A stretch of DNA of 64,000 nucleotides from Amphiscolops sp. MND2022 (taxonomy: Eukaryota), in assembly GCA_964187785.1 (NCBI GenBank), contig OZ076410.1, positions 41,044,001 through 41,108,000 on the forward strand, given 5' to 3'. This document shows, piece by piece, positions 3,538-54,223 of this stretch. The translations under genes and the position numbers were made by a program. The notes under the pieces were generated by a model. That model saw only the letters and a list, made by a program, of their open reading frames with translations, did no database searches and had not been told where the DNA came from. Positions within the stretch are counted from its first letter, which is position 1, and the number at the start of each line of letters is the position of its first letter.

Positions 3538-3715
3538 TGTATCATGATGTATTCATATGCGATTCTCAAAGTACCATGATATATCTATGCGTAAACATAA
3601 ATAGGTCAGCACTGAATGAAGTTAATTAGAGTTTGTTGTAGCTAAGTACTAGACAACTCTCAGACTATGACGGTTTCTCAGTTTGTGATTGGCAGTCTGA
3701 CCTCTGCATCTCAGA
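3538..3715 (-). repeat. E0 3' LTR (about 178 bp)
   Basis: About 90% similar by eye to 7520-7686; preceded on the minus strand by the PPT at 3716-3725. Confidence 0.75.
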
Positions 3716-7519: not shown

Positions 7520-7686
7520 TGTATCGTATGCGATTCTCAAAGTACAATGATATATCTTTACGTAAACATAAATAGGTCAGCACTGAATGAAGTTAATTAG
7601 AGTTTGTTTGTAGCTAAGTACTAGGCAACTCCCAGACTATGACAGTTTTTTGTTTGTGATTGGCACTCTGACCTCTGCTTCTCACA
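7520..7686 (-). repeat. E0 5' LTR (about 167 bp)
   Basis: Begins TGTGAGAAGC and ends GATACA on the minus strand; direct repeat of 3538-3715. Confidence 0.75.
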
Positions 7687-10455: not shown

Positions 10456-12367
10456 TGTCACAGCCCCGCCTGAGCTGCGAGCACTGCAACAAACACAACC
10501 CAGTCTTCGAAGAATAAATTGGGAAAAGAACAAAAGAAGAGGAAATAGACAACTGACAAACAATCAGAAACAAAGGAGGTAAACAATATAAATTTGAAGT
10601 AATTAAATAAATAAATATATGCATATTAGTGTTATTATCATAATAATGTACACTTATATAAATACGTACTTACGGAATAACGGAGCTACTCGTGCAGTTA
10701 ATAATAATACAATACTATGTAATAATAATAATTGAATTGCACCGCTCAGTGAATGAACCGAGAAATTAAAGGCGGAACTGAGGCCTGGCAGCCGGCCTCA
10801 AATACTCGCACTAAAGCGGCGGCCTGGCAGGCAGCCCGAGAATTGTAAACTCAGCGAACTAATATGCAAGTGCGCGCTATAGTGAATACATGTAAATGAA
10901 CTAATGTCTAGTGCAGTGATTTATTAACAATACGAGTGCAAATATACCAACAATTGAGATTTCTGTGCTAACATAATAGAACATCACGTACCGCGGCCTG
11001 GGATGCGGCCTGAGAATTACTTACGATAAATCAATCACGAAAGTGAAAGATGATGATGCTACCATGTAACTTTGTCTGGAAATGAATCTAGAGATTATTA
11101 TCTATGATCTTAAACTATATTGTCGTTTAAAATATCGCATATAACGTTCTTTTACATGTAAATATTAATTAATCTATAAACAGGCCTGAACCGCAGCCTG
11201 GACCAAAGATTTAGTACCGAATATCAAACCAAGTGTTAATAACATGTATATCCTGTTCCCTGAATCTGTTGTCGTTTAATTGCATTAAATACCTTTCTGA
11301 ACAAGGTATCTGATGCTGTTTATAATTAATAGTTGCTTTACCCATTGAACATGTTTGTCCGTCCCGGACTATGGCCTGGGACCAGGCTTCGTGATATTAA
11401 CCAAAATCAGAGCCGTAAAAACTGTAGAAGCAATTCTACTCTTTCATTTGAAACCTAATGTGTGATTTGTGTTAAATTTCATTCAAATTGTTGCTGATTT
11501 ATTTAATTTAGGGAAATATTTGTAAAGGAAAATTGGTTGTCATCATTTTTTCCCAAATTTGTGAAGTTAATCAATCTTATTCAGTGACTCATTGCGCGTA
11601 TCTTTGACAATTTTTTCAGTTCGGCGTCCTGAAGAGGCGGGAAATTGGAGGCGCAGGGAAGCGGAGTTGCAACTCAGGCCGGAAGTGGACGCGTGCTTTT
11701 CTATGGAAAGCATGAACAAGCTGAAAGCCTGAGTTCGACAAAGCGGAACTGAACTTCCTGTTTCCCTGCCTCGGACGGACGCCGGACTGAACAAAATGTG
11801 AAGTATGTTCGTGTCTTTTCCCCGATTTCCGGGATGGAAAGTATAAATACAATGCGAGCTAGAAGCCATTTTTAGTTGAATTTTGTTACCTTTGCGAAAC
11901 AATTGTTTTCCGTTTAACGATAATTAAAAATCTTGAAACATCACACTTTGTTACTTGAGAACTTGCTCTAATTTCCTTAAAAAGAGATCGAGAATCATCA
12001 AGCCTAAGTAAGATGCCAGAACGTAGCTCCAAAAGAAAAGCAAGAAGGGATTCCCCTGTAAACTCCTTAGACGAACCCGAATCTTCTAGCATGAGGACTG
12101 AAAACACTCCTAGTTTGTCAGATAAAGATTTTACGGAATTGTCTGAAAAGATAGAAAAATCTGTAAGTAAAAGAATCAAAGACACAGAAGTCGGACAGCG
12201 TGAGATTCTTAAGATGATAGAGAATCTGACCTCTAAAATTGATACTCTGGCAGAAAGACCGCGTAACAACGTGCGTCATGACTCCGATGATGAGGATGCA
12301 GAAAACATGGATTACAGAATTAGAACAGTTGAATCAAATGATTCACTCCCGAATCACGGTCAACACA
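10456..12367 (+). repeat. E1 5' LTR (1912 bp)
   Basis: TGTCACAGCC...GGTCAACACA; about 98-99% identical by eye to 28580-30476. Confidence 0.96.
11842..11878 (+). promoter_or_regulatory. E1 LTR core promoter: TATAAA plus TTAGTTG initiator-like motif
   Basis: AAAGTATAAATAC...TTAGTTGA has the same sequence and the same 32-nt TATA-to-A spacing in the E2 LTR (61567 to 61535). Confidence 0.7.
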
Positions 12368-13499
12368 TGGTGACAGGAGTTACCACAACCCAGGACATAC
12401 CCACCCGATCATCCAGCCTACCCCCGCCCAACATGAGATATCCAGACGATTTCGTGGACAAATTGCTCGAATCCCTGAAGAATGCCACACAACAGAGCGC
12501 GGGACTGCCCAGACTCCCGAAGGCACTCTCAACAACCATGCCCACATTTGATGGCCGCAATGACAAATTCGAGCACTTCGAGGACCTGTTTATGACGAGC
12601 CTCAAAGTATATCCAAATATCTCAGAGGAAGAGCAAATTCACTACTTCCACTCCCTCCTGAGAGGCGATGCCCTACAGACGTATCGCAATATGACAGACG
12701 CAAACCGCGCCAGTTTAGACGACATCATTACCACATTCCGAAGACGATACGTTCGCCCACAATCTATAGCCACCGCAAGATGTAAGTGGGAACAGCTTTA
12801 CTTCGACCCGACTCGCCAAACCTTCCAAGACTTCCTGGAGCAATACCAGAAATTGGCACAGGAGGCATATGGCGACGACGCCCCAAAGTTCATAGAAACC
12901 TCATTCTATGCAAAAATGCCAGCGCACTTAAAAGGAGTCCTTAACCAGGCATGACTCGAGACAGAGTCGTACGACCTGATGGTCCAGCACCTGGAACGCG
13001 AGATGGAGTTAAACGGACTCCTGGCCCCAAGCGAAACAAGTATAACAGGAGTACACCAAATCGATGTACAAGATGCCCCACAACAAACCGTCAATCCACC
13101 CAAACCAGCAGGCCCGTGTTTCGGATGTGGCAACCCAGGACATGTAATAAAGAACTGCCGGAAAACTGCTCGAGAAGCCCGCAACCGAGGCAACAGGGCA
13201 CCGACTAAGATAACAAACCCATGTGAAACCTGCGGCAAAAAGAGCCATACGACACAGGAATGTTATTCTGGCGCCAACTGGGCAAACAGACCCCAATGGT
13301 GGAAGACCCCTAAAGCAACTTCACCGAATAACATCCCGCTGCCACAGAATACACAAGGTCAGTACCCCCCAGACAACACACCAGTACATCAGCAGCCATA
13401 TAACAATCAAACAAATAGCCAAACGGGCTACCAACCCATGCTCCCGCAGACCAATCAACCTCAAAACCAAACCCACGAACTCAGCCAATCAAAAACTAA
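12013..13499 (+). pseudogene. gag: E1 gag (starts inside the LTR; in-frame TGA at 12952-12954)
   Basis: MPTFDGRNDKFEHFEDLF capsid-like region; two CCHC knuckles CFGCGNPGHVIKNC and CETCGKKSHTTQEC; colinear with the intact E2 gag. Confidence 0.92.
12368..12380 (+). promoter_or_regulatory. E1 primer-binding site TGGTGACAGGAGT
   Basis: Directly follows the LTR terminal CA; same sequence in E2 (13 nt) and E3 (12 nt). Confidence 0.9.
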
Positions 13500-16400
13500 A
13501 TATGCCACATCTTCGATTTGGGGAAACTGTCGAAACCCGACAGTACACAACATCCGAACCCCCAAATTCCTATGACCACGAAAGGAACACCGAGCGACAC
13601 GAAGAACCATCTCTCGACTGGCAGCGAAGATGGCAGATTCACAAGCTCCACAAATATAATCGCCAAAACACTGCAAAGAAAGACTACCCTCAGTGGTACC
13701 TTGACAACCCGACTGCTTACAATACTCTTAAACGACCCCTACCAGAAAACACTTCCCCTGAAACCTACTTCCACGACTCTGACTTCAACTGCGACCCATA
13801 CTATAACCCTCAACCGTATGACAAGACGACCCTAACGTTCAAACAGCAGGAATGCACGCCATTTGAAGAGTACATCAGAAAAACAGGGATGAATATTTCC
13901 ACCGAACCACGTCACAGGTCCAAAACCGTCCAACCTATCCCAGACTACAACCAGGACGCCGAACACGTGACAGAAATCCTAGTTGATATCTCACAGAACA
14001 ACGCCAAACCAATACTCAAGAAACAGGGATTCTATACCACGGCTCCCCATTCTCCACCAAAAGACCAGCCAATAAACCCTATCGTAGCCGGTATCATACG
14101 ATCCCCAACAATGGACGTGGCACCAGACAGCCACCAACATAGAAACCTCACCGACAGGACCACGATCGAAGCCGTGGACCTGGCCCCACCTACACCCAAT
14201 TCAAAGACCAACATCTCCAAACCAAAAACCAAACGAATCAAGAGATCTCTTCTCCTAGAACCCTCCGTTCAAAACGAGACACAGCTCTCACCCACTACCC
14301 TCAATAGTCAGCTAGAAGATGAAATCGACACCGATCGACACATCACAGCTGACGCAACCAACATTCAGTCTGAATTCCCATCAGGTGCTGCAAACGGCAC
14401 ACCGCAACAGGACGTTCCCAGGTCCTACCCCCCTGAGCAGACTGCAGAATATCTGAGGAACAACAAAAGTCCAGTCAGAGAAATCAACGTTGCCACCTCT
14501 CTCTCCAGTAGGCAGACCGAAAACGAAGTCGAGGACCCTCGACCCCTCAACCCGCAACTAATACACAATCTGGATCCCCCACCGGTGTTGTAAACGACAC
14601 ACCACCCCAGGACGAACCCCAGTCCTACCCCCTGGCCCAGATTGCGGAATACCTCACGAGAGACCCCATAACAAAAAAAGAGTGCATACCAATCTTTTCA
14701 GCAGTATCCCTCACAAAGAAGAAGAAAATGCTCTTCGCCCCCATGGACTTCCAGGACTTGACCCTGGACGCCCTTATTGACTCTGGCGCCCTTGTAAACT
14801 GCATCTCCGAAACCGATTACAAGAAAATCCTCCAAATGTCCCCCAAAGACATTGTTAAAGAATTGGAACCACCCCCTTTCAAACTCCAAGTCGCAAATGG
14901 CGACATTGAAACGCCCACCAAAACAATCATCCTCCAATTCGAAATCGGAGACTGGAATTTTAAGGAAACATTTATCGTGGCCAAACGACTGACAGGCCCA
15001 ATACTTGGCCTTACGTTCCTTAAAAATAACAGCGCCATCCTGGACGTGAGCCAGGGCCTGCTACATTTCCCCCACCTCACATATTCAATCGAAATCGATG
15101 AATATACCCGTAACAGGAAACTGTACAAAGTACAAATAAAGAATCCACTCACTATTCCCCCTGAAACGACACAAACAATAACAGGCTCCACAGATATACC
15201 ATCCAACGTCGACACAACCGGTGTCATCAACCCAGCCACCAACCACTGCAGTGGCGACCCCCTCGTGGTAGCCAGTTCAATCTCAACAGCCTCAAACCGA
15301 AAAATCGACATCAGAGTAACAAATACCACCCCTACACCCTATACCATCAAACGAAACACAACAATAGCAGAATTCAAAATCCTGTCCCCCGAAGAGGCAA
15401 AAGAACTCAAACCACTCAACACAGCAGCACTCAAAGTGCTCGCCGAAGACGACTCCGAAGATGCGATGGTGTACATCAACGAGCGCCTGAAAACCTCAGA
15501 AAAACCATCTCACAATCAAAACTTTTGGTTTCCTACACCAGACCACCCCGGAGACCCTGCTACCCACACCCCGATCCAGAGCCGAATTCTCCGAGAAATC
15601 AAAGAACTGGAAGAAATCCAGAAACTCGACCCAAACAACAGCGAAGAGGAACGAAAAACATTCCTCCAAAGCTTCAAATGGGACGATTCACAACTCTCCG
15701 AAGATGACAAGAAAGACATCGAAGAAATACTCATAGAGTTCAACGACATCTTTGCAAGACATCGACTGGACATTGGAATCAACCATGATTTCAAAATCAA
15801 ACTCACACCGAAAACAGACGACCCCGTCTACTCACAGAGTTTGCCCTGCCCCATTAACCTGAAAGGAGATCTGACGGTCGAATTGGCCCTAAAGCATTAC
15901 TTCGGGATTATAACCACGCTCCCGTTCAGCAAGTATGCCAGCCCATTTTCGCCCAAAGGAAGCCAAACGGCCGCCTGCGCCTACTAGTCGACCTCAGGAA
16001 AATCAACAATCTGATATCTGATGATTACATTAACAACAATCATCCAGTGAGCACACTAACAGACGCGGCGCAACACCTCGCCGGCAAGAAGTTGTTTTGC
16101 AAGCTTGATTGTTCACAAGCCTACCACGTGCTGCAAATGGCAGACCAGAAGTCCGTTCAACTTCTAGCATTCAACTTCGCCAGCAGGACATTCGCGTACC
16201 TCAGGCTAGCCCAAGGCCTGAGCCGCTCATTGTCGTCCTTTTCAAGTTTCATGAGGGAATACCTCGACAAGGCCATAAAGGCGGACAAATGCGCTCAGTA
16301 CGTGGATGACATTGGAATTGCCACCAACACTCCCGAGGAGTTAAAGAACAACTTGAGAGAGGTTTTCCAATGCATCCGCGCAGCAGGACTCCGGCTCTCC

Positions 16401-19226
16401 ATGGCCAAATGTCAGTTCGGCGCCAAGGAAGTCGAATTCCTTGGGCGAACAATTTCCCCAGCAGGGGTGGCACCCCAGAGCCACAAGATCCAGAAACACC
16501 TTCAGACCATCAAATTCCCCCGGACGAAGAAGGGACTTCAAAGATACATCGGCTTCGTAAATTACTACAGAAACTACATTCCCCGATTATCAGAGAAGAT
16601 TGCCCCATTTCATGAACTCATCAAATCAGACAAGCCAGTCAAGGTAGATCAGGAACTCATATCCAATTTTGAAGCTATCAACAAATCGTTAGACAACGCA
16701 TGCGGCCTTTGGCTCAAACAGCCACTGCCAAACCGGCAGTACGTACTAATGACAGACGCAAGCTTCAGGATTGCCGGATATGCCTTGATGACTGAGGAAG
16801 ACACGGAGCAAAAGATCACCTCCACCAGGAAGACTTACGCTCCAGTGGCATTTGGCTCTAAAACTTTTTCACCATCCCAGTTGAAGATGTCAATCTATGC
16901 CAAAGAATTCTTAGCCATCTATTTCGCTTTCATGGAATATAGTCACATCTTGTGGGGTTCATCCAAACCGACTATTGTCTTAACCGACAATAAATCAGTC
17001 ACCAGGTTTTTCCAAACCAAGATGATACCACCCTCCCTCTGGAATGCCTGCGATTTTGTTCTGCAATTTCACTTTAAAATCGCCCATGTGCCGGGAAGGA
17101 TGAATACAGCAGCTGATTTCCTCTCCCGATTAGACATTAGCCCCAAAGAAAAAGTCCTTCTCCAAATCAGAGAAGACATTCAAACAACGCCGATCCAGGT
17201 AAACATACAATCCTCCGACATCCATGAAGAAGATCAGTTCTATTTTTTACCAGAGGACGACACTGAGACCGAAGAAGACATTTGGGAGTGTAAACAACAA
17301 GCCAGGAAACAGATCTACACACCCCATGACCAGAACTCCGACCCCAAGAGTGAAACTGTCCAAACCATCTCCCAACCCGAGAACCTACCCTTGGTCTGCA
17401 ACAACATCCAAGACCCAGAGCAAGAACAGCGGCGCCAACTTCACAGTGACACAAGCTTCCCGCGCAGTCTGAGACCGTACCAAGACCAGGACCCCGTCCT
17501 CAGAAACCTCAAACTGAAAATCCTAAAAGAACCGTACGACACCCAACTTCTGAACGACGACCCCAGAGCGGCCAAATACCTCACACAAGATGACCGCATC
17601 ATCATAAAAGATGGACTCCTGTATCGACAATATTTTGGCGATACAGGGAAAGTCAAGTACTTGCAAGTACTACTCCCCCAGCAACTGGTTGATGAATTCA
17701 TACAACACCACCATGGCAAATTCGGGAAACATCCAGGTATAGCTAAAACCATCCAGCATTGCCGCGAAAAGTACTACTTCCCGGGGCTAGCCGCCCGAAT
17801 AGCCACCCACATTGCACAATGCCCAGAATGCGCTCAGACGAAAAGGATACCAAATGCAATGGGTCCAGAAGACGCACTACAAATGGACATCGTCCTCTTT
17901 GACGACCCTTCGGGAGGATACACTGCAGTCATCACAGCGATGGATGTATTCTCCCGTTATCTATTCGCGTATAGCGTCGCCAGAATCGACACCAAGACTG
18001 TCACACGGGTCCTTACAGATATCATCACAAAACACTGCTATCTCCCAACAACGATAATCACGGACAAAGGATCCCAGTTCATATCGGAGGCAATGCAACA
18101 AACAACAGCCATTCTCGGAATCCAACTGAAACATGCCACCACCAAACATGCCCAGACGATAGGCATCCTAGAAAGGACACACGCCTCGCTCAAAGAAAGC
18201 CTAAAAATCATGACGGGAGAGAGGCGAACGATGTGGCACCAATTCTTACCAATGGCAGTATTAAATTACAACACTTCCTACCACACATCATTAGGCTGCG
18301 AACCCAGCCGAGTTTTCCATGGAAGAGTGCCCTACAACGTACTCGACCTAAAGTACGGTCTTAAACCCCAGGCCACTGCCCCAACTAACCACGAAATAGC
18401 TGAGGGAGTGTTACAACAAACACAAGAAATCCTCAACCAGAGCCAACAAGCCCTGATGCAAGCCTACGTCCGACATAAGCGTTAGTATGACCGGAAAGCA
18501 TCAGCACACCCCTTGGTAGTAAACGACTACTGCTATGCTTTGCATCCAAAGGCGCATAGCCAAGCGACGAAATTGCCGTTTCGGGAATACCTTTGGACGG
18601 GACCATATATCGTGGTCGAAACCCTACCCAACAACAACTATCTGATACGCAAACTCCAGACCAATTTCACACAGATCCTGCACAGAATCAGGCTACGCCC
18701 CTTCGCAAGCAGCCACAAGCTGCCTGACATTACAGTCCCACCCAAGGATTTCCAGCAGGATACAGAGGTAGCCATACAGCACGACGACCTCTTCGCAATG
18801 GCGTGGGAAAAACTTTACAAAGAATGCCCTAACCAACCCGAAAATAAACAATTACCCGAACTTGAAGTGATCCAACCAACCCCAGAAACAATCAATGACC
18901 CCACCCACCCCGGCCCCCCAAGCCCTAACCTAGTATACGACCCCGAAATCATTTCTAACCACCCAAGTGACCAGACACAGGACCCACCAATCGATATCGA
19001 TGATGAACCCGAAAATAATACACCCGCACCTCAATCCCCCCGGAAATCCCACTACAACCTTCGAAAAAACCCGACGTCAAATTGGAAACCAGATTATGCC
19101 TATTACAATGCCCTAACAGCCAATTCAACAAACTTGGCATATTCTTCCGACGGACTGGACAACGGCCCAGAATTACAGGTTTTAGCGGACCTCGGCCCAG
19201 ACGGCAGTCCGAGATCAGAAAATTAA
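13490..19226 (+). pseudogene. pol: E1 pol (extra N-terminal domain - PR - RT - RH - IN), broken by frameshifts near 13495, 14550 and 15945 and a TAG at 18483
   Basis: LIDSGA (PR), QYVDD (RT), TDASF and AKEFLAI (RH), HHGKFGKHPG..CPEC, TDKGSQF and WTGPY (IN). Confidence 0.95.
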
Positions 19227-19571
19227 TCAGGCCCAGGCACTGGCCTGGACCACAATCCTATGACCTGACTTCAAATCTTTTCAAATTACAATGGCTTTCA
19301 CTCACTCTACTGTACTCTACGACTTGGATGAAAACAATACAGAGGCAAAATACTAAATTCACAGACCCACAAGGATCATGGAGCCGCCTCATCTTTTATT
19401 TTTTCCTCTAATTTTTCTTCTTTGCCCTACTCAGACAGAGAGCAATTTTAAAAATTACATTTGAAATGGAAAATGGAACCATAGAACGTTCTACAAAGAA
19501 AAACAGCCAACAATATACACAAGGCAGATAATACAAAGTTCATCAACAAGAAGCATATACAACAAAAGTTT

Positions 19572-22029
19572 TCAACCAGATTTGCCGGAACGACAAGGTT
19601 TCTTCCCACCAGGCTTCGACGAAGATACGGTCGCTGACACACCTTGACTAATATCTGAACCACCATGGGAACAGACATCAATAACTGCAGCAGGGCCAGA
19701 AACCATCCGAGAAGTCCTTTGGACCGAAGACATCCGAGCCCTCCACTCATCAACCTGCCCAGAATAGTAGGCAGTATAACACTGGAATAAACTGTTGTAA
19801 ACGTCTTCCACAGGATGACGATTTACATCAACCCAAGGATCAAACGAATCCCGAGCAAGAAAATGGTGACCAACGGGCAGGTTGATCTTCAATTCTTCCA
19901 CGCAATCCAAAGTTAGAAGATCCGATGACATAAACTTTGGGTGCAGAACAAAGGACTGAACGGCATAAAGACCGGACCGAATCACACTGGCTGGCAAGTT
20001 GGTCCCACTAACAGATATATCCACAGCCGGCATAACACTAGACACGGGACACACAATGACCCGTACAAGACGAACCACCTGTCGGACATGGGATCGGCAC
20101 TGGTAACTCCCAATGGTCTCTAAATATTCAAAAACGTCAGCAATCTGAGATGAATCCACCGACAACTGGCTCAAATCCACAACCAGCGATTTAAACTCAT
20201 TAACAGAGGACTCCCGATCCAGATCATCCAGATACCCAGTCTCTTGCAGACAAACAACGAGATCCTCAAACAGTCTGATGACATAATCAGCATCGCCCCC
20301 AACAACATATCCACACTGAGGCAGCTCAGAGAACGGGCAATACGAGAATTGGCATAGGCAGAAGAACTCAATTGCTTGAGAAGCTCCAATAAATAACTTT
20401 GACACTCCCGTAGAAAGGACCGACGCGGAGACTCCTCGAATCCTCGCAGAGCTTTCTGGATGCTCAGCTCACCTTGGAGACACTCACCCACGGGTACATT
20501 AGCCCAGCTATTGAGCGGCTTGTCAATGTAGTCGAACCAATCATCGACGGACGGCAGCTGACTCACCTTCTTGACTTTACTCAGCAAGCTCCAGTAAAAG
20601 AAGCAGAAGTCTGTGAAACTCCTACATGCATAATCCCGGACATTGGCGTCAAAGAACTTCTTACAGTTTGCACGAAAACACAACAGGACAACATGCAACA
20701 GTGCCAGTCGCGGAAGACCTAACCAATCTGAACACAGCAAGGAGTCCAAATCCACTACATTGGCAGACTTCTTCATCACAGACACGTCATTAGACAGACA
20801 CAGCTTCACATCTGCCCAATGGTCCAACAGCTCCTGCAACACCTCACAAAAGACACTGACAGGCACGTCACCGGACTCCAAACAGAGACGCAGTTGAGGC
20901 AATTCCAGCAACCACGCTTGCTGACAAACTCTCTTGAGACGCTGCACGAGGTACTCGATGGTGGCAAAAGGATCCACGGAGCCCACGCACGAAAAGCTAG
21001 CATCGTTCACGAGCCGGCGCAAAAGCTCGATACTGAAGGTCACGGAGACGAGGGGCACAGGACGCCTCACTAGCCGGCACCAATCAACATAAGCATTGAA
21101 GAGGACCGGAGAACAATTTTCAATTGCAACATGACCACGACGAGTAGAAACCAGTGACAGGACCCGGGACAGACAACGAATGTAGGCCTCAATTGAGACA
21201 GTGCCATAATCCTCTTCCACAATACAGATCTCGCGTACGGAATCACCAGAACAGCAGCGGACCGTACACTTCACCCCGGAGGATGAAGACTGCAAAGCCA
21301 AACTGGAAGAGCTGTCTCCTAGCCATGATTTCACACGCCGAAGAACACGAGGATATAAGGTCTGCACTAACACGACCACAGTCTCCGTCTTGCTCCACGT
21401 GACTGACGCATATGGGCTTTCCACAGGCAGAGTAGTTCGGAATTGATTCCACAAGCGGCGTAGAAAGGCCTGGGAACCACCGCTCCTTAGCAGCTCCAAC
21501 AAGCAACCGACGAGAGTAGTAGGAGGGACGTTGGACGGGACGCCAACCAACGCATCCACCTCATCCTCCAAGAACTTGTTCATTCGCCCCAGAACAACGG
21601 GGGGAGTCTTCTCAATCTCAGCCCGCAGGTCAGCCGAGATTTCTGCAACCGGAATGGCATCGAGTTTATCTGTATAAATAAAGTCCTCATGGTCATGCCG
21701 ATACCTCTGGTCCTTTGCTAGGTGCCCCTTGCATTTGAAATGACGCCATATACCACGGGGCCCTCGTGACAGAAATGAGACGTCCTTGCGGCAAATGGCA
21801 CAATTAAAACCATTCGGACTTTTATCATTGCGCCGGCTTACAAATAATCGAGGCACAGGATGGTTACTCATAGCCTTTGTCAGCACGTGTCGCTCAGTTT
21901 TCTTCTTGGTTTTTTCTTCGTCTCGAGCGAGCAGCTTCTCTTTCTTCAACTCAACTGGATCCAAGAAACGACCGGGATCACTAGCATCGATACCTTTAGA
22001 CTTCAGCAACTGCGACAGCTCCTCAAACT
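19572..22029 (-). pseudogene. duplicated orphan last exon of the E1 antisense gene, frameshifted (G6 to G5 near 20298)
   Basis: ORFs 20171-22051 and 19572-20405 together reproduce ORF 23993-26473. Confidence 0.9.
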
Positions 22030-22200
22030 CTAAAACAAGAAACAACAACAACTCATAAAATAAACTCTACACAACACCAACCCAGAATGTACAAGCACAG
22101 TATAAAGCAGAAAAGACCACAGAACAAACAGATGAAACAACCAATGTACCGCGGAAGGAAACGGAAAATACAAAACTACAACACCGAAAATTTACTAACG

Positions 22201-23646
22201 ATGCCCAGAATGCGCTCAGACGAAAAGGATACCAAATGCCAACATCACACCCCCGCTCATCGAAATGTCCAAAATAGCAATGGGTCCAGAAGACGCACTA
22301 CAAATGGACATCGTCCTCTTTGACGACCCTTCGGGAGGATACACTGCAGTCATCACAGCGATGGATGTATTCTCCCGTTATCTATTCGCGTATAGCGTCG
22401 CCAGAATCGACACCAAGACTGTCACACGGGTCCTTACAGATATCATCACAAAACACTGCTATCTCCCAACAACGATAATCACGGACAAAGGATCCCAGTT
22501 CATATCGGAGGCAATGCAACAAACAACAGCCATTCTCGGAATCCAACTGAAACATGTCACCACCAAACATGCCCAGACGATAGGCATCCTAGAAAGGACA
22601 CACGCCTCGCTCAAAGAAAGCCTAAAAATCATGACGGGAGAGAGGCAAACGATGTGGCACCAATTCTTACCAATGGCAGTATTAAATTACAACACTTCCT
22701 ACCACACATCATTAGGCTGCGAACCCAGCCGAGTTTTCCATGGAAGAGTGCCATACAACGTACTCGACCTAAAGTACGGTCTTAAACCCCAGGCCACTGC
22801 CCCAACTAACCACGAAATAGCTGAGGGAGTGTTACAACAAACACAAGAAATCCTCAACCAGAGCCAACAAGCCCTGATGCAAGCCTACGTCCGACATAAG
22901 CGTTAGTATGACCGGAAAGCATCAGCACACCCCTTGGTAGTAAACGACTACTGCTATGCTTTGCATCCAAAGGCGCATAGCCAAGCGACGAAATTGCCGT
23001 TTCGGGAATACCTTTGGACGGGACCATATATCGTGGTCGAAACCCTACCCAACAACAACTATCTGATACGCAAACTCCAGACCAATTTCACACAGATCCT
23101 GCACAGAATCAGGCTACGCCCCTTCGCAAGCAGCCACAAGCTGCCTGACATTACAGTCCCACCCAAGGATTTCCAGCAGGATACAGAGGTAGCCATACAG
23201 CACGACGACCTCTCCGCAATGGCGTGGGAAAAACTTTACAAAGAATGCCCTAACCAACCCGAAAACAAACAATTACCCGAACCTGAAGTGATCCAACCAA
23301 CCCCAGAAACAATCAATGACCCCACCCACCCGGCCCCCCAAGCCCTTACCTAGTATACGACCCCGAAATCATTTCTAACCACCCAAGTGACCAGACACAG
23401 GACCCACCAATCGATATCGATGATGAACCCGAAAATAATACACCCGCACCTCAATCCCCCCGGAAATCCCACTACAACCTTCGAAAAAACCCGACGTCAA
23501 ATTGGAAACCAGATTATGCCTATTACAATGCCCTAACAGCCAATTCAACAAACTTGGCATATTCTTCCGACGGACTGGACAACGGCCCAGAATTACAGGT
23601 TTTAGCGGACCTCGGCCCAGACGGCAGTCCGAGATCAGAAAATTAA
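22201..23646 (+). pseudogene. pol: second copy of the integrase core and C-terminus
   Basis: Duplicate of about 17819-19226; retains 39 bp that are deleted in copy A. Confidence 0.92.
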
Positions 23647-23992
23647 TCAGGCCCAGGCACTGGCCTGGACCACAATCCTATGACCTGACTTCAAATCTCT
23701 TCAAATTACAATGGCTTTCACTCACTCTACTGTACTCTACGACTTGGATGAAAACAATACAGAGGCAAAATACTAAATTCACAGACCCACAAGGATCATG
23801 GAGCCGCCTCATCTTTTAATTTTTCCTCTAATTTTTTCTTCATTGCCCTACTCAGACAGAGAGCAATTCTAAAAATTACATTTGAAATGAAAAATGGAAC
23901 CATAGAACGTTCTACAAAGAAAAACAGCCAACAATATACACAAGGCAGATATTACAAAGTTCATCAACAAGAAGTATATACAACAAAAGTTT

Positions 23993-26900
23993 TCAACCAG
24001 ATTTGCCGGAACGACAAGGTTTCTTCCCACCAGGCTTCGATGAAGATACGGTCGCTGACACACCTTGACTAATATCTGAACCACCATGGGAACCGACATC
24101 AATAACTGCAGCAGGGCCAGAAACCATCCGAGAAGTCGTTTGGACCGAAGACATCCGAGCCCTCCACTCATCAACCTGCCCAGAATAGTAGGCAGTATAA
24201 CACTGGAGTAAACTGTTGTAAACGTCTTCCACAGGATGACGATTTACATCAACCCAAGGATCAAACGAATCCCGAGCAAGAAAATGGTGACCAACGGGCA
24301 GGTTGATCTTCAATTCTTCCACGCAATCCAAAGTTAGAAGATCCGATGACATAAACTTTGGGTGCAGAACAAAGGACTGAACGGCATAAAGACCGGACCG
24401 AATCACACTGGCTGGCAAGTTGGTCCCACTAACAGATATATCCACAGCCGGCATAACACTAGACACGGGGCACACAATGACCCGTACAAGACGAACCACC
24501 TGTCGGACATGGGATCGGCACTGGTAACTCCCAATGGTCTCTAAATATTCAAAAACGTCAGCAATCTGAGATGAATCCACCGACAACTGGCTCAAATCCA
24601 CAACCAGCGATTTAAACTCATTAACAGAGGACTCCCGATCCAGATCATCCAGATACCCAGTCTCTTGCAGACAAGCAACCAGATCCTCAAACAGTCTGAT
24701 GACATAATCAGCATCGCCCCCCAACAACATATCCACACTGAGGCAGCTCAGAGAACGGGCAATACGAGAATTGGCATAGGCAGGAGAACTCAATTGCTTG
24801 AGAAGCTCCAATAAATAACTTTGACACTCCCGTAGAAAGGACCGACGCGGAGACTCCTCGAATCCTCGCAGAGCTTTCTGGATGCTCAGCTCACCTTGGA
24901 GACACTCACCCACGGGTACATTAGCCCAGCTATTGAGCGGCTTGTCAATGTAGTCGAACCAATCATCGACGGACGGCAGCTGACTCACCTTCTTGACTTT
25001 ACTCAGCAAGCTCCAGTAAAAGAAGCAGAAGTCTGTGAAACTCCTACATGCATAATCCCGGACATTGGCGTCAAAGAACTTCTTACAGTTTGCACGAAAA
25101 CACAACAGGACAACATGCAACAGTGCCAGTCGCGGAAGACCTAACCAATCTGAACACAGCAAGGAGTCCAAATCCACTACATTGGCAGACTTCTTCATCA
25201 CAGACACGTCATTAGACAGACACAGCTTCACATCTGCCCAATGGTCCAACAGCTCCTGCAACACCTCACAAAAGACACTGACAGGCACGTCACCGGACTC
25301 CAAACAGAGACGCAGTTGAGGCAATTCCAGCAACCACGCTTGCTGACAAACTCTCTTGAGACGCTGCACGAGGTACTCGATGGTGGCAAAAGGATCCACG
25401 GAGCCCACGCACGAAAAGCTAGCATCGTTCACGAGCCGGCGCAAAAGCTCGATACTGAAGGTCACGGAGACGAGGGGCACAGGACGCCTCACTAGCCGGC
25501 ACCAATCAACATAAGCATTGAAGAGGACCGGAGAACAATTTTCAATTGCAACAGGACCACGACGAGTAGAAACCAGTGACAGGACCCGGGACAGACAACG
25601 AATGTAGGCCTCAATTGAGACAGTTCCATAATCCTCTTCCACAATACAGATCTCGCGTACGGAATCACCAGAACAGCAGCGGACCGTACACTTCACCCCG
25701 GAGGATGAAGACTGCAAAGCCAAACTGAAAGAGCTGTCTCCTAGCCATGATTTCACACGCCGAAGAACACGAGGATATAAGGTCTGCACTAACACGACCA
25801 CAGTCTCCGTCTTGCTCCACGTGACTGACGCATATGGGCTTTCCACAGGCAGAGTAGTTCTGAATTGATTCCACAAGCGGCGTAGAAAGGCCTGGGAACC
25901 ACCGCTCCTTAGCAGCTCCAACAAGCAACCGACGAGAGTAGTAGGAGGGACGTTGGACGGGACGCCAACCAACGCATCCACCTCATCCTCCAAGAACTTG
26001 TTCATTCTCCCCAGAACAACGGGGGGAGTCTTCTCAATCTCAGCCTGCAGGTCAGCCGAGATTTCTGCAACCGGAATGGCATCGAGTTTATCTGTATAAA
26101 TAAAGTCCTCATGGTCAAGCCGATACCTCTGGTCCTTTGCTAGGTGCCCCTTGCATTTGAAATGACGCCATATACCACGGGGCCCTCGTGACAGAAATGA
26201 GACGTCCTTGCGGCAAATGGCACAATTAAAACCATTCGGACTTTTATCATTGCGCCGGCTTACAAATAATCGAGGCACAGGATGGTTACTCATAGCCTTT
26301 GTCAGCACGTGTCGCTCAGTTTTCTTCTCGGTTTTTTCTTCGTCTCGAGCGAGCAGCTTCTCTTTCTTCAACTCAACTGGATCCAAGAAACGACCGGGAT
26401 CACTAGCATCGATACCTTTAGACTTCAGCAACTGCGACAGCTCCTCAAACTCTAAAACAAGAAACAACAACAACTCATAAAATAAACTCTACACAACACC
26501 AACCCAGAATGTACAAGCACAGTATAAAGCAGAAAAGACCACAGAACAAACAGATGAAACAACCAATGTACCGCGGAAGGAAACGGAAAATACAAAACTA
26601 CAACACCGAAAATTTACTAACGCTTAGCTAGCGACTCAGTCTCTTTCATGGTCTCAGTCCTTTCCGCCCGAGCAGCACTCCGAGCCAACAGCAAACATTG
26701 CGCTGCAGTCATCACCACAGGAGACTCAGGCGGTACGGCAGGCAAACCAACTGAAACAACACCTGTTTACCATACCGAAGTATTACACTCTTCGCGATAC
26801 TGCTAACACGACAACAGTGCAGGACACAATAATGACGCAAGAACATGAAACACCAAAAATGAAAAGAGCGAGGAAAGCAAACGTGCAAAACTATACCTTT

Positions 26901-28056: not shown

Positions 28057-28641
28057 ATGAATCATCCAAATTCAAACAGCAAAATGGACGAAGACGTCTT
28101 CATTCTCGAACGAGATCAACAGCAGCAGACCGAACAAAGATCCGGTACACCGCCACCAGATTATAACCTAATTACCACGCGGCAAATTAACATTACTTAC
28201 GAAATCATTAAAACACAGGACTACCACGTAGTCCTAGTACATGAAGAAACGCCGGCCGATACTACGAACACAGAAAGCGAGACGGGAGTCATCAGACGTT
28301 TCACGCAAGACAACCCAGTGATCCCCGAAGACACATTTGTGAGCCCGGTCAGGCAATTCGACCGTGAAATTTACGATGATCCCGACAACAAAGTTGATAG
28401 CCCAATAAGTTTCTACAGTAGATCAGAAGGCTACTATTCGGGCAGCGATTGGGAGACAGACTCATCTTGGCGATCCTACAATTCATTAACTGACGATCTC
28501 CCAACGCTATTTGAGACCCCGATTCGATCAATTTCCCAATTTCTCCTTCCTGAGGGAACTGGGTACAGAAGCCGAGGACTGTCACAGCCCCGCCTGAGCT
28601 GCGAGCACTGCAACAAACACAACCCAGTCTTCGAAGAATAA
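28057..28641 (+). CDS. E1 ORF-X, 194 aa unknown protein running through the PPT into the 3' LTR
   Basis: ATG-initiated; shares FILxRDQ, YEII, NPxIPxDxFxSP, GYxSGSDWxTDSSW and SRGLSQP with the E2 ORF-X. Confidence 0.8.
   Translation: MNHPNSNSKMDEDVFILERDQQQQTEQRSGTPPPDYNLITTRQINITYEIIKTQDYHVVLVHEETPADTTNTESETGVIRRFTQDNPVIPEDTFVSPVRQFDREIYDDPDNKVDSPISFYSRSEGYYSGSDWETDSSWRSYNSLTDDLPTLFETPIRSISQFLLPEGTGYRSRGLSQPRLSCEHCNKHNPVFEE
28567..28579 (+). promoter_or_regulatory. E1 imperfect polypurine tract
   Basis: AGAAGCCGAGGAC directly before the 3' LTR TGTCA; E2 has AAAGCCGGGGAC. Confidence 0.6.
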
Positions 28642-30476
28642 ATTGGGAAAAGAACAAAAGAAGAGGAAATAGACAACTGACAAACAATCAGAAACAAAGG
28701 AGGTAAACAATATTAATTTGAAGTAATTAAATAAATAAATATATGCATATTAGTGTTATTATCATAATAATGTACACTTATATAAATACGTACTTACGGA
28801 ATAACGGAGCTACTCGTGCAGTTAATAATAATACAATACTATGTGATAATAATAATTGAATTGCACCGCTCAGTGAATGAACCGAGAAATTGAAGGCGGA
28901 ACTGAGGCCTGGCTCGGACTAAAGCGGCGGCCTGGCAGGCAGCCTGAGAATTGTAAACTCAGCGAACTAATATGCAAGTGCGCGCTATAGTGAATACATG
29001 TAAATGAACTAATGTCTAGTGCAGTGATTTATTAACAATACGAGTGCAAATATACCAACAATTGAGATTTCTGTGCTAACTTATTAGAACATCACGTACC
29101 GCGGCCTGGGATGCGGCCTGAGAATTACTTACGATAAATCAATCACGAAAGTGAAAGATGATGATGCTACCATGTAACTTTGTCTCGAAATGAATCTAGA
29201 GATTATTATCTATGATCCTAAACTATATTGTCGTTTAAAATATCGCATATAACGTTCTTTTACATGTAAATATTAATTAATCTATAAACAGGCCTGAACC
29301 GCAGCCTGGACCAAAGATTTAGTACCGAATATTAAACCAAGTGTTAATAACATGTATATCCTGTTCCCTGAATCTGTTGTCGTTTAATTGCATTAAATAC
29401 CTTTCTGAACAATGTATCTGATGCTGTTTATAATTAATAGTTGCTTTACCCATTGAACAAGTTTGTCCGTCCCGGACTATGGCCTGGGACCAGGCTTCGT
29501 GATATTAACCAAAATCAGAGCCGTAAATACTGTAGAAGCAATTCAACTCTTTCATTTAAAACCTAAAGTGTGATTTGTGTTAAATTTCATTCAAATTGTT
29601 GCTGATTTATTTAATTTAGGGAAATATTTGTAAAGGAAAATTGGTTGTCATCATTTTTTTCCCAAATTTGTGCAGTTAATCAATCTTATTCAGTGACTCA
29701 TTGCGCGTATCTTTGACAATTTTTTCAGTTCGGCGTCCTGAAGAGGCGGGAAATTGGAGGCGAAGGGAAGCGGAGTCGCAACTCAGGCCGGAAGTGGACG
29801 CGTGCTTTTCTCCGGAAAGCATGAACAAGCTGAAAGCCTGAGTTCGACAAAGCGGAACTGAACTTCCTGTTTCCCTGCCTCGGACGGACGCCGGACTGAA
29901 CAAAATGTGAAGTATGTTCGTGTCTTTTCCCCGATTTCCGGGATGGAAAGTATAAATACAATGCGAGCTAGAAGCCATTTTTAGTTGAATTTTGTTACCT
30001 TTGCGAAACAATTGTTTTCCGTTTAACGATAATTAAAAATCTTGAAACATCACACTTTGTTACTTGAGAACTTGCTCTAATTTCCTTAAAAAGAGATCGA
30101 GAATCATCAAGCCTAAGTAAGATGCCAGAACGTAGCTCCAAAAGAAAAGCAAGAAGGGATTCCCCTGTAAACTCCTTAGACGAACCCGAATCTTCTAGCA
30201 TGAGGACTGAAAACACTCCTAGTTTGTCAGATAAAGATTTTACGGAATTGTCTGAAAAGATAGAAAAATCTGTAAGTAAAAGAATCAAAGACACAGAAGT
30301 CGGACAGCGTGAGATTCTTAAGATGATAGAGAATCTGACCTCTAAAATTGATACTCTGGCAGAAAGACCGCCTAACAACGTGCGTCATGACTCCGATGAT
30401 GAGGATGCAGGAAACATGGATTACAGATTTAGAACAGTTGAATCAAGTGATTCACTCCCGAATCACGGTCAACACA
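28580..30476 (+). repeat. E1 3' LTR (1897 bp)
   Basis: Copy of 10456-12367 with a roughly 15-bp deletion and a few dozen substitutions. Confidence 0.96.
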
Positions 30477-31350: not shown

Positions 31351-32822
31351 TGTCGCAGGCTTCCGCCTGCGATGGGAATATTTACACGATAGACCACACA
31401 AAGCCTATCGCCTTACCCGGAACATTGCCTTTGTAAAACTAAAACTTTCGAATCTTTGATACTGTTTTGAACTTATGGTGTTGTTCGATGAATGTAATTA
31501 TATTTGTTTATCATGTAAAATAACATTTGACAGCAAGCTATACTGACAGGTAGAAAGGAAACGTGTTCAAATGCCTGCTTGTTCAGTATAGCTAACGTGG
31601 CCGTCACCGGCTAATCAGCCAATCACAGTGCAGCTGGTATTAGATGCTTATTTATCAATTATATAGCTGTGGTAATATTTACTCGGAAAGGACAAGTAAG
31701 GCCACGCGGACTAGCCGGCCTTACTTGTCAATCAATTCAGTTGAGGCTAGTTACCTTTTGAAAGGTGCTCTATTCATACACGGGACTTTTATTAATGAAA
31801 TACCAACGAAGGTGCTTGTAGCGCAATAAATATTCCCTTTCTGGTGCGAAAAGAGAAAGGCCTTGTTCGGCCATATGAACAGAGTGACGTAATTAGAAAT
31901 ACATGTAATGTCGGCATGTAAAGTGTTGCTTCATGTTGATATATATGAATGCGTTGCTAGACCGTATTAGGACTTGCGTCACCCCCCGCGGCACGCCTTT
32001 GATTTCGCCGCTCCCGCCGCAAATCATCTGTGACTGCATTTCCTATATTTAGATTGCGGTATTGATGTTATTTATAGCCGATAACTATTTTTAGTAACAA
32101 GACCATTAAAAATTTGCGTGTCACGCCCGTTTGGGTATATATACCCGGGCGGAGTCTTTGTAACACACAATCTTAGTTGAACCACTGTTATTCAGTTGCT
32201 TTGCATTTATACAAGTTTCTTGTAAAGCTCTCCGGAAAATCCGATTACAGAAACAATTTAAATATTTTCTCCTGTAGAATTATTTTATGCCTTCCACAAA
32301 AAAAACAAAAAGCTAAGGCCAGAAAGTCGAGAGAATTAGATATGTTGTCCGATTACGGCAACACAGATGTAATGTTAGGAGATGGAAATTCCAACTTCAT
32401 AAAAAGAGAGTTAGATAGTCTTATCAACGTCCCAGAAGGACAGCGAGATTTCATCTCAAGATAATGAGATCAGAGATATCGGCAATAGAAATGAGCCCGT
32501 CAGGGAAGAAAGAATAATAGAATTAATTAATACGCTTTCGGGTGAAATGAATGCTAGGATGTCCCGGGAAATGGAGTCAATGACGGACTTCATGCAGACT
32601 CAAATTAGTAGGGCTATTAGCTGTGCTATAAGCGACAGAATATTACTTGAAACACAAAATATAGTGGAAAATTTGCCTTTGAACCAACATGGCGTGAGCC
32701 GTGTGCGTCCACAATTGAGGATAGAATCGGAAAAATGTCGAAAAACGCAAATACGAAACTTACTAAGAAGGACTCCAGGTCCGCCTGTGATTTGAGGGAT
32801 CTTAAGGACTTTACTCCTTACA
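31351..32822 (+). repeat. E3 5' LTR (about 1472 bp)
   Basis: TGTCGCAGG...CCTTACA followed by the PBS; about 90% similar to 44935-45985. Confidence 0.85.
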
Positions 32823-33938
32823 TGGTGACAGGAGCTAACGAACTCCAACATCCGCTTCCCGAATTCCTCACAGGACAAATTCACTCTCAGCCAGACCTCC
32901 AGAGGCAAGAATCCGAGCATGATACAACCATGGACACAACTGTACCAGTGGTAGAGCCCGTTGCGGCTGAACAACCACAGGACTCTATCAATCGTCTGGC
33001 AGATGTCTTGGTAAATCTCCAAAACAAACCGCAGTAGATTACAATCAGACCAGTCACGACGAACCTTATGACTTTTGACGGAAAAATAGAGGAATTCGAA
33101 TTGTTCGAAGATCTTTTTCACACGGTGATAAAGATGCAGCCCGCCATAACTGAACAAATGAAAATCAACAACTTTCATTCACTACTCAGAAAGGGGGCCT
33201 TACGAACATTTCGAAACATAAACTCTACAAACCGTCAAACACTGGAGGACTTATTGGTCATATTCGGCAGGAAATACGTCAAACTTGAGTCTCAAGTCAC
33301 AGCAAAGCACAAGTGGCACCGACTTGTATTCGATCCTAACACAATGAAATTACCCGACTTTCTGGAGGATCTCAAACAGGGAGCTGAGAACGCCTTTGGA
33401 GAGAATGCTAAAAGCATGTCAAACAGCTTGTTATATGACAAATTACCACCCAAACTCAAACAATCGGTCAACATGGCCAGGTTAGAAAACGGAACATATG
33501 AGGAAATTGTGGCACACCTCGAAACGGGAATCTGATTATTTACCCATTTCCACAATGGCTTCATCATCAGATAAGGCGCGAAACCTGCCGTCTAACGGCA
33601 TTAAGACCGACAAAGACAATCAATGCTCATACTGCAATGCTGAAGACCACTTCGGGAAGAACTGACCAAAGCTTAAAAAGAAAAAGGAATTGGACGCCAA
33701 AAATGGTAAAAAGACCCAACGCTCGACTTATACAGAATGTCCCACCTGCAGCGAAACTAATCACCTACCCGAGAACTGTTGGCGTGATGCCGGAGATAAT
33801 CTTCGTCCCAAAAGAAATAGACAGTACTCTAAAAATACAGAGCCCTCCGAAGACGAAGGCACCCTCACTAAAATTGAAAAATCTGCAACATCTGCATCAT
33901 TCCAATCGAACTCAAAGAAACTTGATTCAAAAAACTAA
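32287..33938 (+). pseudogene. gag: E3 gag, LTR-initiated (MPST.KQKAKARKSRELDMLSD), frameshifted
   Basis: MTFDGKIEEFELFEDLF, knuckle remnants, ends GAT TCA AAA AAC TAA. Confidence 0.85.
32823..32834 (+). promoter_or_regulatory. E3 PBS TGGTGACAGGAG
   Basis: Same motif and same reading frame (MVTG) as E1 and E2. Confidence 0.88.
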
Positions 33939-47364: not shown

Positions 47365-49416
47365 TGTTGGAACTCTCGTTCCTAGATAAACCAACTTCTT
47401 CTAGTTCTTCAGTGGGGTTTCCACTGTTCTCAGTCCTGGTCGTCAAGTAACCTTGTTCAGAATTGACGCTTGATAAGTTATCGACTTTGGACGATAGACT
47501 CTCAATCAATTTTAATATCTCGCGTTGGTTGAGTTCAGTGTCTCTGAGACGCTTAGAAATTTTATTCTCAATTTTATTGGATATGTCTTCAAAATCCCTT
47601 TCCGAAAGTACGGCGTTTTCGTCGTTGATCGAGCTTGCCGTCTCTATGTCGAACTGGCTGGTCGACTGGTCACTCCTCAACTTTCGTTTTTGAGATTTCT
47701 CAGGCATCTTGTAAAATAGTGGAGAGACAATATTTCAATTAAACTTGAGTCGTTACAAACGTAATGGAGACTTCAGTTCAGTGAATTGTCAGAGTTTTCG
47801 AAACAAAAGAATTATATTAAGCAAAGGTAATTAAAACAATTATTACAAAGGCAAAATTTCCGGAGAACGGTTAATCAAACGCACTTGGAAAAATCAAATT
47901 ATCAACTAACTTTTCCTAATCCCGCTTCAGGTATTTATACTTTACGCTAGACACACGGGGAAAACCCCGCGCGTGAATTCACACCTTGTTCACCTCGGCG
48001 TCCTTTCCAAAGCGGGGAAATCCAAATAAGGTATTCTTCCTCGGGACTCGGCGTTCGGTTCCAACCCACTTTAAAGAAAAGTGGGAATTCACTTCCTGCC
48101 GCTTCCCGATTCCGCGTCCCTTTCTTCTTCATTTCCCGCCTTTTCAAGACGCCGAAGGTGAAGTTGGCACTGAAATTCATGAACCTAGCTACTGAAGCGG
48201 GAAAAGGAAATGAATTTTCCTTTAAATAAAATAAGCAATTCAACATAAGAGAAAACTGCACTAATTTGTGAGTTGACAAAATTAGGGGTGATGATCACAA
48301 CTATCGACGCACTTTCACAAATTTAACATTAAACACGTGCCTGGTCGACGGACATAATACTCAAACGAGGTCAAACAACCAGGCTAACAGCCCAAATTAA
48401 TGCATGTGAAAAGGGGGGCAAGATTATTCAGTTAGGTAGCATCTGGGAGTAATTTCCATTCGGTCAACAAATATGGTATGTCGGACGATTGTCACTATCA
48501 TAACGTATTAATATTTCACTCAAATTTGATACATCATTAATTAATCAAACGGTTGTCCAGGCGGGAGTCCCAGCTCATACTAATATTATTCATCATTTCG
48601 CTTCGCTTGAATGATTTGTAACCTTCCATGTATAATTAAGATAGCACATTTACATGTATCAAGGCAGTTATTCATTATCTATTGGTGTTTTGGTTCTTTA
48701 CTGCTCCATCTAAGTTGGGCTGATTGTCCCGGCGGTCGTCCCAGTTTATAAATATAGACCGGTTGTCCCAGCGGTCGTCCCAGAACTCATGGTTGACAAA
48801 TTAACAATTGTACTTTGGTATATTATAAATATTACATATTCCAACTCTATTACTTAAAACTGCATATTTTAAGCTTCTTCTAAGCTCTGAATTTGAGTTT
48901 ATTTCACATTTAGCGTCGTTTGAGTACACTAGCATTTCAGATAATTCAGTCGAGCAGCCAGGCGTGCGTCCCAGCTTTGTCGACTGAATTGCTTGGCTAG
49001 CAGAGTAACTGAATTAATACTGCACATTCGCGCTTAGCGCTGATTGGTTAATTAAAGGGGCAGTGAGAATTAGTGTGTTTTGCTACGCAGATATTGGGAC
49101 GGTAGGCTGGTCAGTGCGCTGGTTGGAATAACTTCAATCAGCGTATTGGTCAAGCTACTGCAAACAAATCACATTTACAACAAGTTATTATTATTTAATT
49201 ATTTACATATTTATGTATTTCAGGTACTGCAGGGGGTTGATGATATTAATATTATGCACTTACAGGGTTGTTCAATATCAATGAGTGTTTGTTTGTTGAT
49301 TGTTTTCTTTCAGGTTTGTGATGGTTTATTAGCTTCTTCTTGGTTAATTTCTCCATTTCTTTCCTCTGGCGTTCTCTCTGTTCTTATTATTTCACGGCCC
49401 TGTGGCGGCTGTGACA
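47365..49416 (-). repeat. E2 3' LTR (2052 bp)
   Basis: TGTCACAGCC...TTCCAACA on the minus strand; near-identical to 60993-63044. Confidence 0.97.
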
Positions 49417-53200: not shown

Positions 53201-54223
53201 GTGGCTTTGTCGTCCTGCGGTGATGCTTTCCGGCGCGCTTTCCTTCGTGAATGTCAGGGTTTCCTGTTGGAATTCCTGAAGGTGCTCAATCAGTCTGCTT
53301 ATGCAAAGTCGGGTTTGGCATCTAGTCTGAGTTGCTTCTCTCCAGATATGATGTTATTAGGCGATGAGTCATATGCTGTTGTTCTGTTCAAGGATCTGAC
53401 CACCTATTTCTTGGACTGTGGGCGTCTATCCTCGTTGGATTGCGAGGCAGCTGCTAACGAGTTTAAATCTTTGCTCGTTGAATTACGGCGACGGAACAAA
53501 CGGGTGGTTTCTTCTATCACGAACAGTTTCACTTTCCTGCGTGATTCCGGGCTACTGGACTGTCGTCTGAATCTGGATCGAGTTGTGCAGTTAGCTGCAA
53601 TGGCCGTGGTTCCGCGTGAGATCTGTTATCCGGTCGTCGATATGTCGCTGAGTGGATCCAAAATTCCAAAGAAGGTTTTATTGTCCTCAATCTTTGCTTG
53701 TCAATCGTACGTTTCGTTCGATAAGTTCGTTTCCGGAGAGCTGTTGACGAAGGATTGTCTCGAGGAACTGAAGTGCAACTTGCCAAACGGGAAGAATTTT
53801 ATGGATAACGCTTCCTTCTCGCCGTGGGGTAATTTGTATTTGCATGCCCGAGGTGACCTCTATCGCGAATTGCGTGATGCGTTTGATTCCTATTATCTGG
53901 CCCAGGTGGCAGAGTGGCGTCGGCGAGCTGGTCTGGGTTTGTACTCTGTGTCCTCGTCTCCGGACAAGTTACAGCCTGTGTTGGATTCTCAGCAGGTGGA
54001 TGCCGTAGTTGGGCCTTCTTCCGGGAAGAGTTCCAAGGTTCCGTCAGTTGTCACTTTCTCACCAACAAAGATGTCTACTGTGTCAGTTTCGCAGTCCCGT
54101 GGGTCCAGCAGTGTAGCGGAAAAGGTGAGGGAGAAGAAGAACCAACGTCTTGGGAGTGTGCCCAGTTGTTCATCCAGTAAAGAAGCTTCCGGTGTGTCTA
54201 GGAAGCGTAGTTCCCAGAATTGA
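50240..54223 (+). CDS. E2 antisense 5-exon gene, about 1176 aa; exons 50240-50675, 50766-50930, 51029-51232, 51345-51470, 51624-54223
   Basis: Four phase-1 GT-AG introns (90, 98, 112, 153 nt; donors GTAAGT, GTGGGT, GTTATT, GTAAGT). Spliced CDS is 3531 nt and open. Exon 3 is 204 nt in both E1 and E2. Confidence 0.87.

Follow-up and report, generated by a model that had tools for sequence, protein, structure and literature searches.

The question raised by this locus is where the gag gene of its LTR retrotransposons begins. The window, the whole 64,000-nt stretch of DNA analyzed here, contains three LTR elements (E1, E2, and E3). The 5′ LTR of E1 occupies positions 10456–12367 of the forward strand, has TG...CA ends, and carries the target-site duplication CTATC. 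Within it, a reading frame opens at ATG 12013 and runs through 118 codons and the last A of the LTR, then in frame into MVTG and the capsid. The LTR-encoded part (12013–12367) comprises a basic tip, a predicted helix, and a variable linker. It is followed by a 12-nt primer binding site (PBS, 12368–12379), complementary to the 3′ end of host tRNA-Leu(CAG) including CCA and read in frame within MVTG, and by the gag body (12380–13575), with capsid and zinc knuckles, in which this copy has an in-frame stop at 12952–12954. The two LTRs of E1 are 97.8% identical; the 3′ LTR (28580–30476, forward) holds a second copy of the peptide with its ATG at 30122, whose frame enters the flanking DNA and stops at 30511. 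We propose that, in a Gypsy clade, the gag frame has its 5′ part in this LTR stretch, which is selected as protein; translation probably begins at the first AUG of the genomic RNA, so that the stretch would supply the N-terminal domain of Gag. Judged from the sequence, we consider this reading highly probable.

E2 lies on the reverse strand between LTRs that are 99.9% identical. Its 5′ LTR (60993–63044) carries a TATA-like box at 61568 and the target-site duplication GTTAG, and its 3′ LTR (47365–49416) contains the same LTR-encoded peptide, with the ATG at 47707. The gag frame (59920–61335, ATG 61335) has 471 stop-free codons, the first 114 of which, plus an A, are held by the LTR. In another frame, the pol frame (54557–60043, reverse; PR-RT-RH-IN) overlaps the end of gag, where an A-rich run is found that we take to be typical of a −1 frameshift site. 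About 360 residues of pol ahead of the protease (58900–60043, reverse) have no Pfam match. Upstream of about 61845, the E2 family has two alternative versions of the distal U3, and at 22 of 49 loci the match to the E2 copy begins only there.

E3 contains a degenerate LTR-encoded gag start (32287–32834, forward) that is frameshifted and interrupted by stops, with the PBS at 32823–32834. The distance from ATG 32287 to the junction A at 32822 is 536 nt, or about 178 codons, out of frame, and the 3′ LTR match stops at 45947, short of most of this region. E3 is therefore counted by homology only, through the intact relatives L131 (187 codons) and L044 (LTR boundary shown). The first-pass annotation had placed the start of gag 114–178 codons inside the LTR in all three elements. 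This stands for E1 (118) and E2 (114); for E3 it rests on the intact relatives. Its proposal that the PBS is part of the gag frame (CA|TGG read as ATG, MVTG) is confirmed in E1 and E2, where the frame runs through to the capsid. In both elements the 3′ LTR carries the peptide again, as far as the terminal CA. Under the standard scheme of reverse transcription, the LTR codons would be copied in minus strong-stop DNA and thus be present in both LTRs.

The same layout is widespread in the genome. Across the 1.07-Gb assembly there are 7,527 matches to the junction 14-mer, vs one for its reversed control. A junction sample was formed from the first 90 of 100 matches listed, chosen by DNA pattern and not by protein. 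In 68 of these 90, the gag frame is stop-free for at least 100 codons upstream of the junction; the other two sense frames reach this length in 0 of 90 each, and the three antisense frames in 0, 3, and 0 of 90, although copies within a family are kin and these counts are not independent events. Among copies with an intact gag body, the upstream frame is open in 49 of 53. The LTR-encoded part spans 103–216 codons in the 56 copies with family-typical starts, a range that leaves out one false match (L060). In ten of ten further elements, from different families, the region recurs in the 3′ LTR as far as the CA (two alignments overran it, by 1 and 4 bases), and the frame therefore truly lies within the LTR.

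The layout recurs, with 129 codons, in a metagenome contig (L289) whose second LTR falls outside the locus. Since its best match in this genome, among 40 scored candidates, reaches 69% and covers the capsid only, these sequences suggest that the layout extends to another host. An MVTG-type motif is present in 20 of 32 protein relatives with a long N-terminus. The motif is repeated in the Gags P0154, P0204, P0136, and P0263 and at L289:3757–3810, which correspond to tandem LTR-end/PBS junctions in frame. Such tandem junctions are a possible route by which the PBS moves along gag.

Evidence for a coding role comes from selection within families. For the LTR part, pairwise counts over disjoint pairs of natural copies give a dN/dS of 0.18 in the E1 family (44 copies, after 6 loci that were short or of another subfamily had been dropped), 0.11 in the E2 family (49 copies after the removal of 1), and 0.14 in the MNPD family (39 copies). 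The E2-family copies were chosen by likeness to the LTR peptide itself, which lowers dN; the E1 and MNPD sets were chosen by capsid and are free of that bias. The predicted helix region is the most constrained (0.05–0.08 across the three families; 0.08 for E1 codons 36–82, at 12118–12258, which align with the long helix predicted for E2), and the linker ahead of the junction gives 0.13–0.40. As controls, shifted frames yield 1.3–1.9, the 150 nt before the ATG 0.7–0.9, and the gag body 0.08–0.15. Between subfamilies, the LTR part remains at 0.09–0.18 in six divergence bins (88 of 137 copies with intact frames, minus two duplicates). Shared indels number 1 in ~1.0 kb of LTR frame vs 66 in ~2.1 kb upstream, and third-position periodicity in E1 sets in at 12013. 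The earlier claim that the LTR peptide is conserved as protein is thus borne out, the family values of 0.11–0.18 being far from the neutral ratio that would have spoken against it.

The sequence plan of the peptide points in the same direction. In the AlphaFold2 model of the E2 Gag, built on a 33-sequence alignment, the tip is predicted to be disordered and to be followed by a single helix (residues 36–82), a disordered linker containing MVTG, and the capsid; block pLDDT is 75–92 over residues 31–70 and 64 over residues 71–80. Lysine and arginine exceed expectation in residues 1–15 of 16/16 representatives, marginally in the two MNPD ones, which agrees with the basic patch noted at first pass, and a 28-residue amphipathic window is found in 15 of 16 (shuffle p ≤ 0.05). 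A basic tip followed by an amphipathic helix is a plan common to families without clear sequence likeness. N-terminal coiled coils are common in Gypsy Gags. The LTR-encoded helix has no Pfam match above cut-off, and the LTR peptide alone scored at best 0.78 against the ESM Atlas, which is uninformative for homologues. The tip may serve in RNA binding or nuclear import, both putative roles, and the single long amphipathic helix is predicted to aid Gag self-association. For the capsid part of the model, the best Foldseek matches are PNMA2, dArc1, and dArc2, all weak (E 0.002–0.03; none ≤0.001).

The sequence ahead of the LTR ATG is consistent with its use as a start codon. In the 100 nt before it, 3 ATGs are observed vs 72 expected over 56 copies, the in-frame third of this test being partly true by construction. 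A TATA-like box lies mostly 115–300 nt upstream of the LTR ATG; in E1 it is at 11841–11849 (forward), and the same motif precedes the ATG in E2 and in most families. Transcription would start about 30 nt downstream of this box, giving E1 a putative AUG-free 5′ leader at 11875–12012 (forward), which ribosomes would scan to the LTR AUG. An AUG-free leader together with a TATA-like box thus fits, as far as sequence can tell, cap-dependent scanning to the first AUG. A poly(A) signal, ATTAAA, is found near 11,923 in E1 and has no clear equivalent in E2, so that the frame may lie in U5 or partly in R.

A different use of the junction would be the production of two Gags: initiation at the LTR AUG would give the long form, and initiation at the junction AUG, whether through leaky scanning, through internal entry, or on a second transcript, a short, capsid-first form. 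We regard this as unlikely. The junction ATG is retained in all copies (44/44, 49/49, and 39/39), and its context is nominally good, with a purine at −3 in 41 of 56 copies vs 26 of 56 at the first AUG and a G at +4 in every copy. The roughly 30–60 residues between it and the capsid region might also allow a short form to fold. However, this ATG is forced because the CA of the LTR end abuts the TGG of the PBS, a copy of the tRNA CCA, so that LTR end and PBS together dictate its sequence and context. An LTR terminating in ACA likewise leaves D, N, H, or Y as the residue just ahead of it in 89 of 90 copies. Between the LTR start and the junction, AUGs number a median of 9 per copy, and those out of frame show no depletion (267 observed vs 242 expected in 45 copies). 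Leaky scanning to the junction ATG was therefore rejected as a clade-wide mechanism. In favor of a short form, intervening AUGs are absent from 45 of 49 E2-family copies, but this absence has P = 0.24 under a synonymous shuffle. A tRNA bound to the PBS would, moreover, cover the junction codon. The second, shorter Gag suggested by the first-pass annotation is consequently not upheld, and the junction ATG probably just results from the ACA left at the integrase end meeting the TGG copied from the tRNA CCA.

The PBS itself would, with initiation at the LTR AUG, likely be translated as part of Gag. Over the first 12 nt past the LTR, the sequence pairs with host tRNA genes at their 3′ end, and base 13 varies; the length of 12 nt was set by the search pattern, shorter variants lying outside the sample. 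ARAGORN called tRNA-Leu(CAG) at 2 of 8 fetched matching loci. Self-priming instead of tRNA priming was considered and dropped, as matching tRNA-Leu genes are present. Genome-wide, tRNA-Leu-like 3′ ends give 991 matches, and most of the matches listed fall in a dense tandem array at G000:C8:35587000–35635000 and beyond, with a spacing of 180–500 nt.

It could also be argued that selection acts on the LTR frame chiefly as a small protein in its own right, expressed from 3′ or solo LTRs or from a short transcript, for example as a dominant-negative regulator of copy number, with the fusion to the capsid being secondary. Every 3′ LTR does contain the promoter, the leader, and the frame; for one E1-type end motif, 209 LTR ends were counted, with the PBS next to only 99 of them; and the four-fold sites of the LTR frame (T 0.37, C 0.18 in 45 copies) are T-rich as in the upstream LTR and unlike the gag body (T 0.17, C 0.30). 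Nevertheless, we find this reading improbable. In no sampled family does a stop precede the PBS, the fusion to the capsid is kept in those 49 of the 53 intact copies, and frames in 3′ LTRs end randomly in flanking DNA, while a ratio of 209:99 allows for few solo LTRs. A further reading, in which RNA or DNA constraints on the LTR keep the frame open as an untranslated by-product, is very improbable: although translation is deduced from sequence, the frame-specific dN/dS of 0.05–0.18, the avoidance of indels, and the AUG-free leader recur in three families, and no part of the element varies more than these synonymous sites, the opposite of nucleotide-level constraint.

Taking the LTR frame as the N-terminal part of Gag, its synonymous diversity calls for comment. 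In all three families, dS of the LTR part is 3–6 times that of the gag body, and in 21 E1 copies third-position diversity is 0.146 in the LTR frame vs ~0.05 in U3, the gag body, and RT/RNase H. Intermolecular first strand transfer links R/U5 of one RNA with U3 of another, as excerpts of PMC6894440 describe. We tentatively suggest that the N-terminal domain of Gag is a mobile cassette in the strong-stop segment, re-paired with another capsid and polymerase at each intermolecular first strand transfer; the bounds of the cassette would then be R and a PBS common to all families. Such exchange would explain both the roughly 3-fold synonymous diversity and the linkage, in the E1 family, of U3 with the gag body across the LTR frame. 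In that family (44 copies), r2 between U3 and the gag body is 0.17 vs 0.08–0.09 for the LTR frame with either (bootstrap difference 0.043–0.128), and linkage to the body falls near 11,900, close to the inferred start site. Neither the E2 family (49 copies, −0.065 to 0.019) nor the MNPD family (39 copies, −0.032 to 0.033) showed this signal; a 27-copy E2 subset with a longer U3 runs in the opposite direction (−0.37 to −0.12), and in the pol linkage test on 21 E1 copies the interval spans zero. Swapping at first strand transfer thus fits one of three families. If the cassette reading is true, the element diversifies one protein domain through an obligatory replication step. With the synonymous excess falling precisely in the LTR frame, the role of first-strand-transfer recombination is testable from natural copies. 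The strand skew of the interior is missing from the LTRs.

Long antisense ORFs are located between pol and the 3′ LTR, at 51638–54223 (forward, antisense to E2) and at 23993–26293 and 20171–21871 (reverse, antisense to E1). The ORF is 50% identical between E1 and E2 and has antisense homologues in 6 of 10 other elements. It has no match in Pfam, scores 0.91–0.93 against hAT/ZBED/FAM200 clusters of the ESM Atlas, and gives Hermes transposase in the top 11 Foldseek rows (E at least 0.002), from a low-confidence model (pLDDT 39). The ORF is probably a hAT-transposase-like gene that was captured and that the clade carries. E1 also contains an internal tandem duplication of 4.35 kb (17852–22200 and 22272–26622, 99.2% identical) that spans the integrase end and the antisense ORF. 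Outside the three elements, a 167-nt direct repeat is present at 3548–3713 and 7520–7684 (92% identity, 4 kb apart).

The significance of the gag start lies in its departure from the working rule that the LTR is noncoding and gag follows the PBS, here for a whole high-copy Gypsy clade with clear selection. Gene callers that start at MVTG lose a quarter to a third of Gag, and LTR dating and neutral-rate estimates would be off because the LTR is partly coding. Every 3′ or solo LTR is, in addition, a ready promoter and leader with a 100–215-codon open exon leading into host DNA.

Several features place these elements among known systems. The two LTRs with TG...CA ends, the short target-site duplication, and the tRNA PBS are those of Ty3/Gypsy LTR retrotransposons, and the Pfam domains of E2 pol follow the Ty3/Gypsy order (PR 368–462, RT 773–937, RH 1008–1137, IN 1343–1697). 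Against solved structures, the best matches are foamy-type PR-RT (1e-30) and Ty3 RT/Gag-Pol (1e-28); 7ksf and 7kse are presumably foamy-type structures. BEL/Pao pol domains are Peptidase_A17, DUF1758, and DUF5641. BEL-type domains are missing among the 10 Pfam families matched in E2 pol, with only DUF1759 found, in gag. Membership of Ty1/copia was rejected, as the integrase-before-RT order and the tRNAi-Met primer are absent. PNMA2, dArc1, and dArc2, the weak fold matches of the capsid part, are Gypsy-derived Gags with solved capsids, but they are host genes.

Within Ty3/Gypsy, the Mag lineage is marked by a tRNA-Leu or tRNA-Ser PBS, and a tRNA-Leu PBS is what we find here. Mag-like mosquito elements commonly have a tRNA-Leu PBS, and both groups have 5-bp target duplications; however, LTRs in the table of PMC3286476 measure 119–304 bp vs ~2 kb here, and its excerpted parts do not mention a gag start in the LTR. 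By this comparison of the PBS, the elements may belong to the Mag lineage.

The closest parallels are copia-type. Tca5 of Candida albicans, a Ty5-like element, has an ORF from position 382 of a 685-bp LTR, an "unusually deep inset" whose real start is called unclear in the review excerpt (PMC4139406). By our arithmetic it lies ~100 codons inside the LTR, as here. Tca5 is, however, a single low-copy element, discussed in that excerpt without a selection test, whereas here the layout spans a whole Gypsy clade, junctions number in the thousands, and selection was measured. The first-pass view that so long an extension is unusual therefore needs qualification, since Tca5 starts ~300 bp inside its LTR (PMC4139406, in part); for Gypsy elements, a gag start deep in the LTR was not found in the full-text literature covered, a body of text that takes in few subscription journals or repeat-database entries. 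In Ty1 of Saccharomyces cerevisiae, the 5′ UTR is 53 nt, the PBS lies at nt 95–104, inside the coding sequence, and GAG starts upstream of it (excerpts of PMC5454406). The elements described here share this intragenic layout: their gag AUG precedes the LTR end, and the reading frame takes in the PBS. They differ from Ty1, which has ~14 codons before the PBS (computed from the excerpted figures of PMC5454406), tRNAi-Met, and the copia order, in having 103–216 codons, a constrained helix, tRNA-Leu, and the Gypsy order. As in Ty1, one stretch of RNA would serve both ribosomes and tRNA priming, here behind a domain predicted to be folded. The arrangement works like the intragenic PBS of Ty1 and is a much larger, clade-wide, and selected version of it in the Gypsy group.
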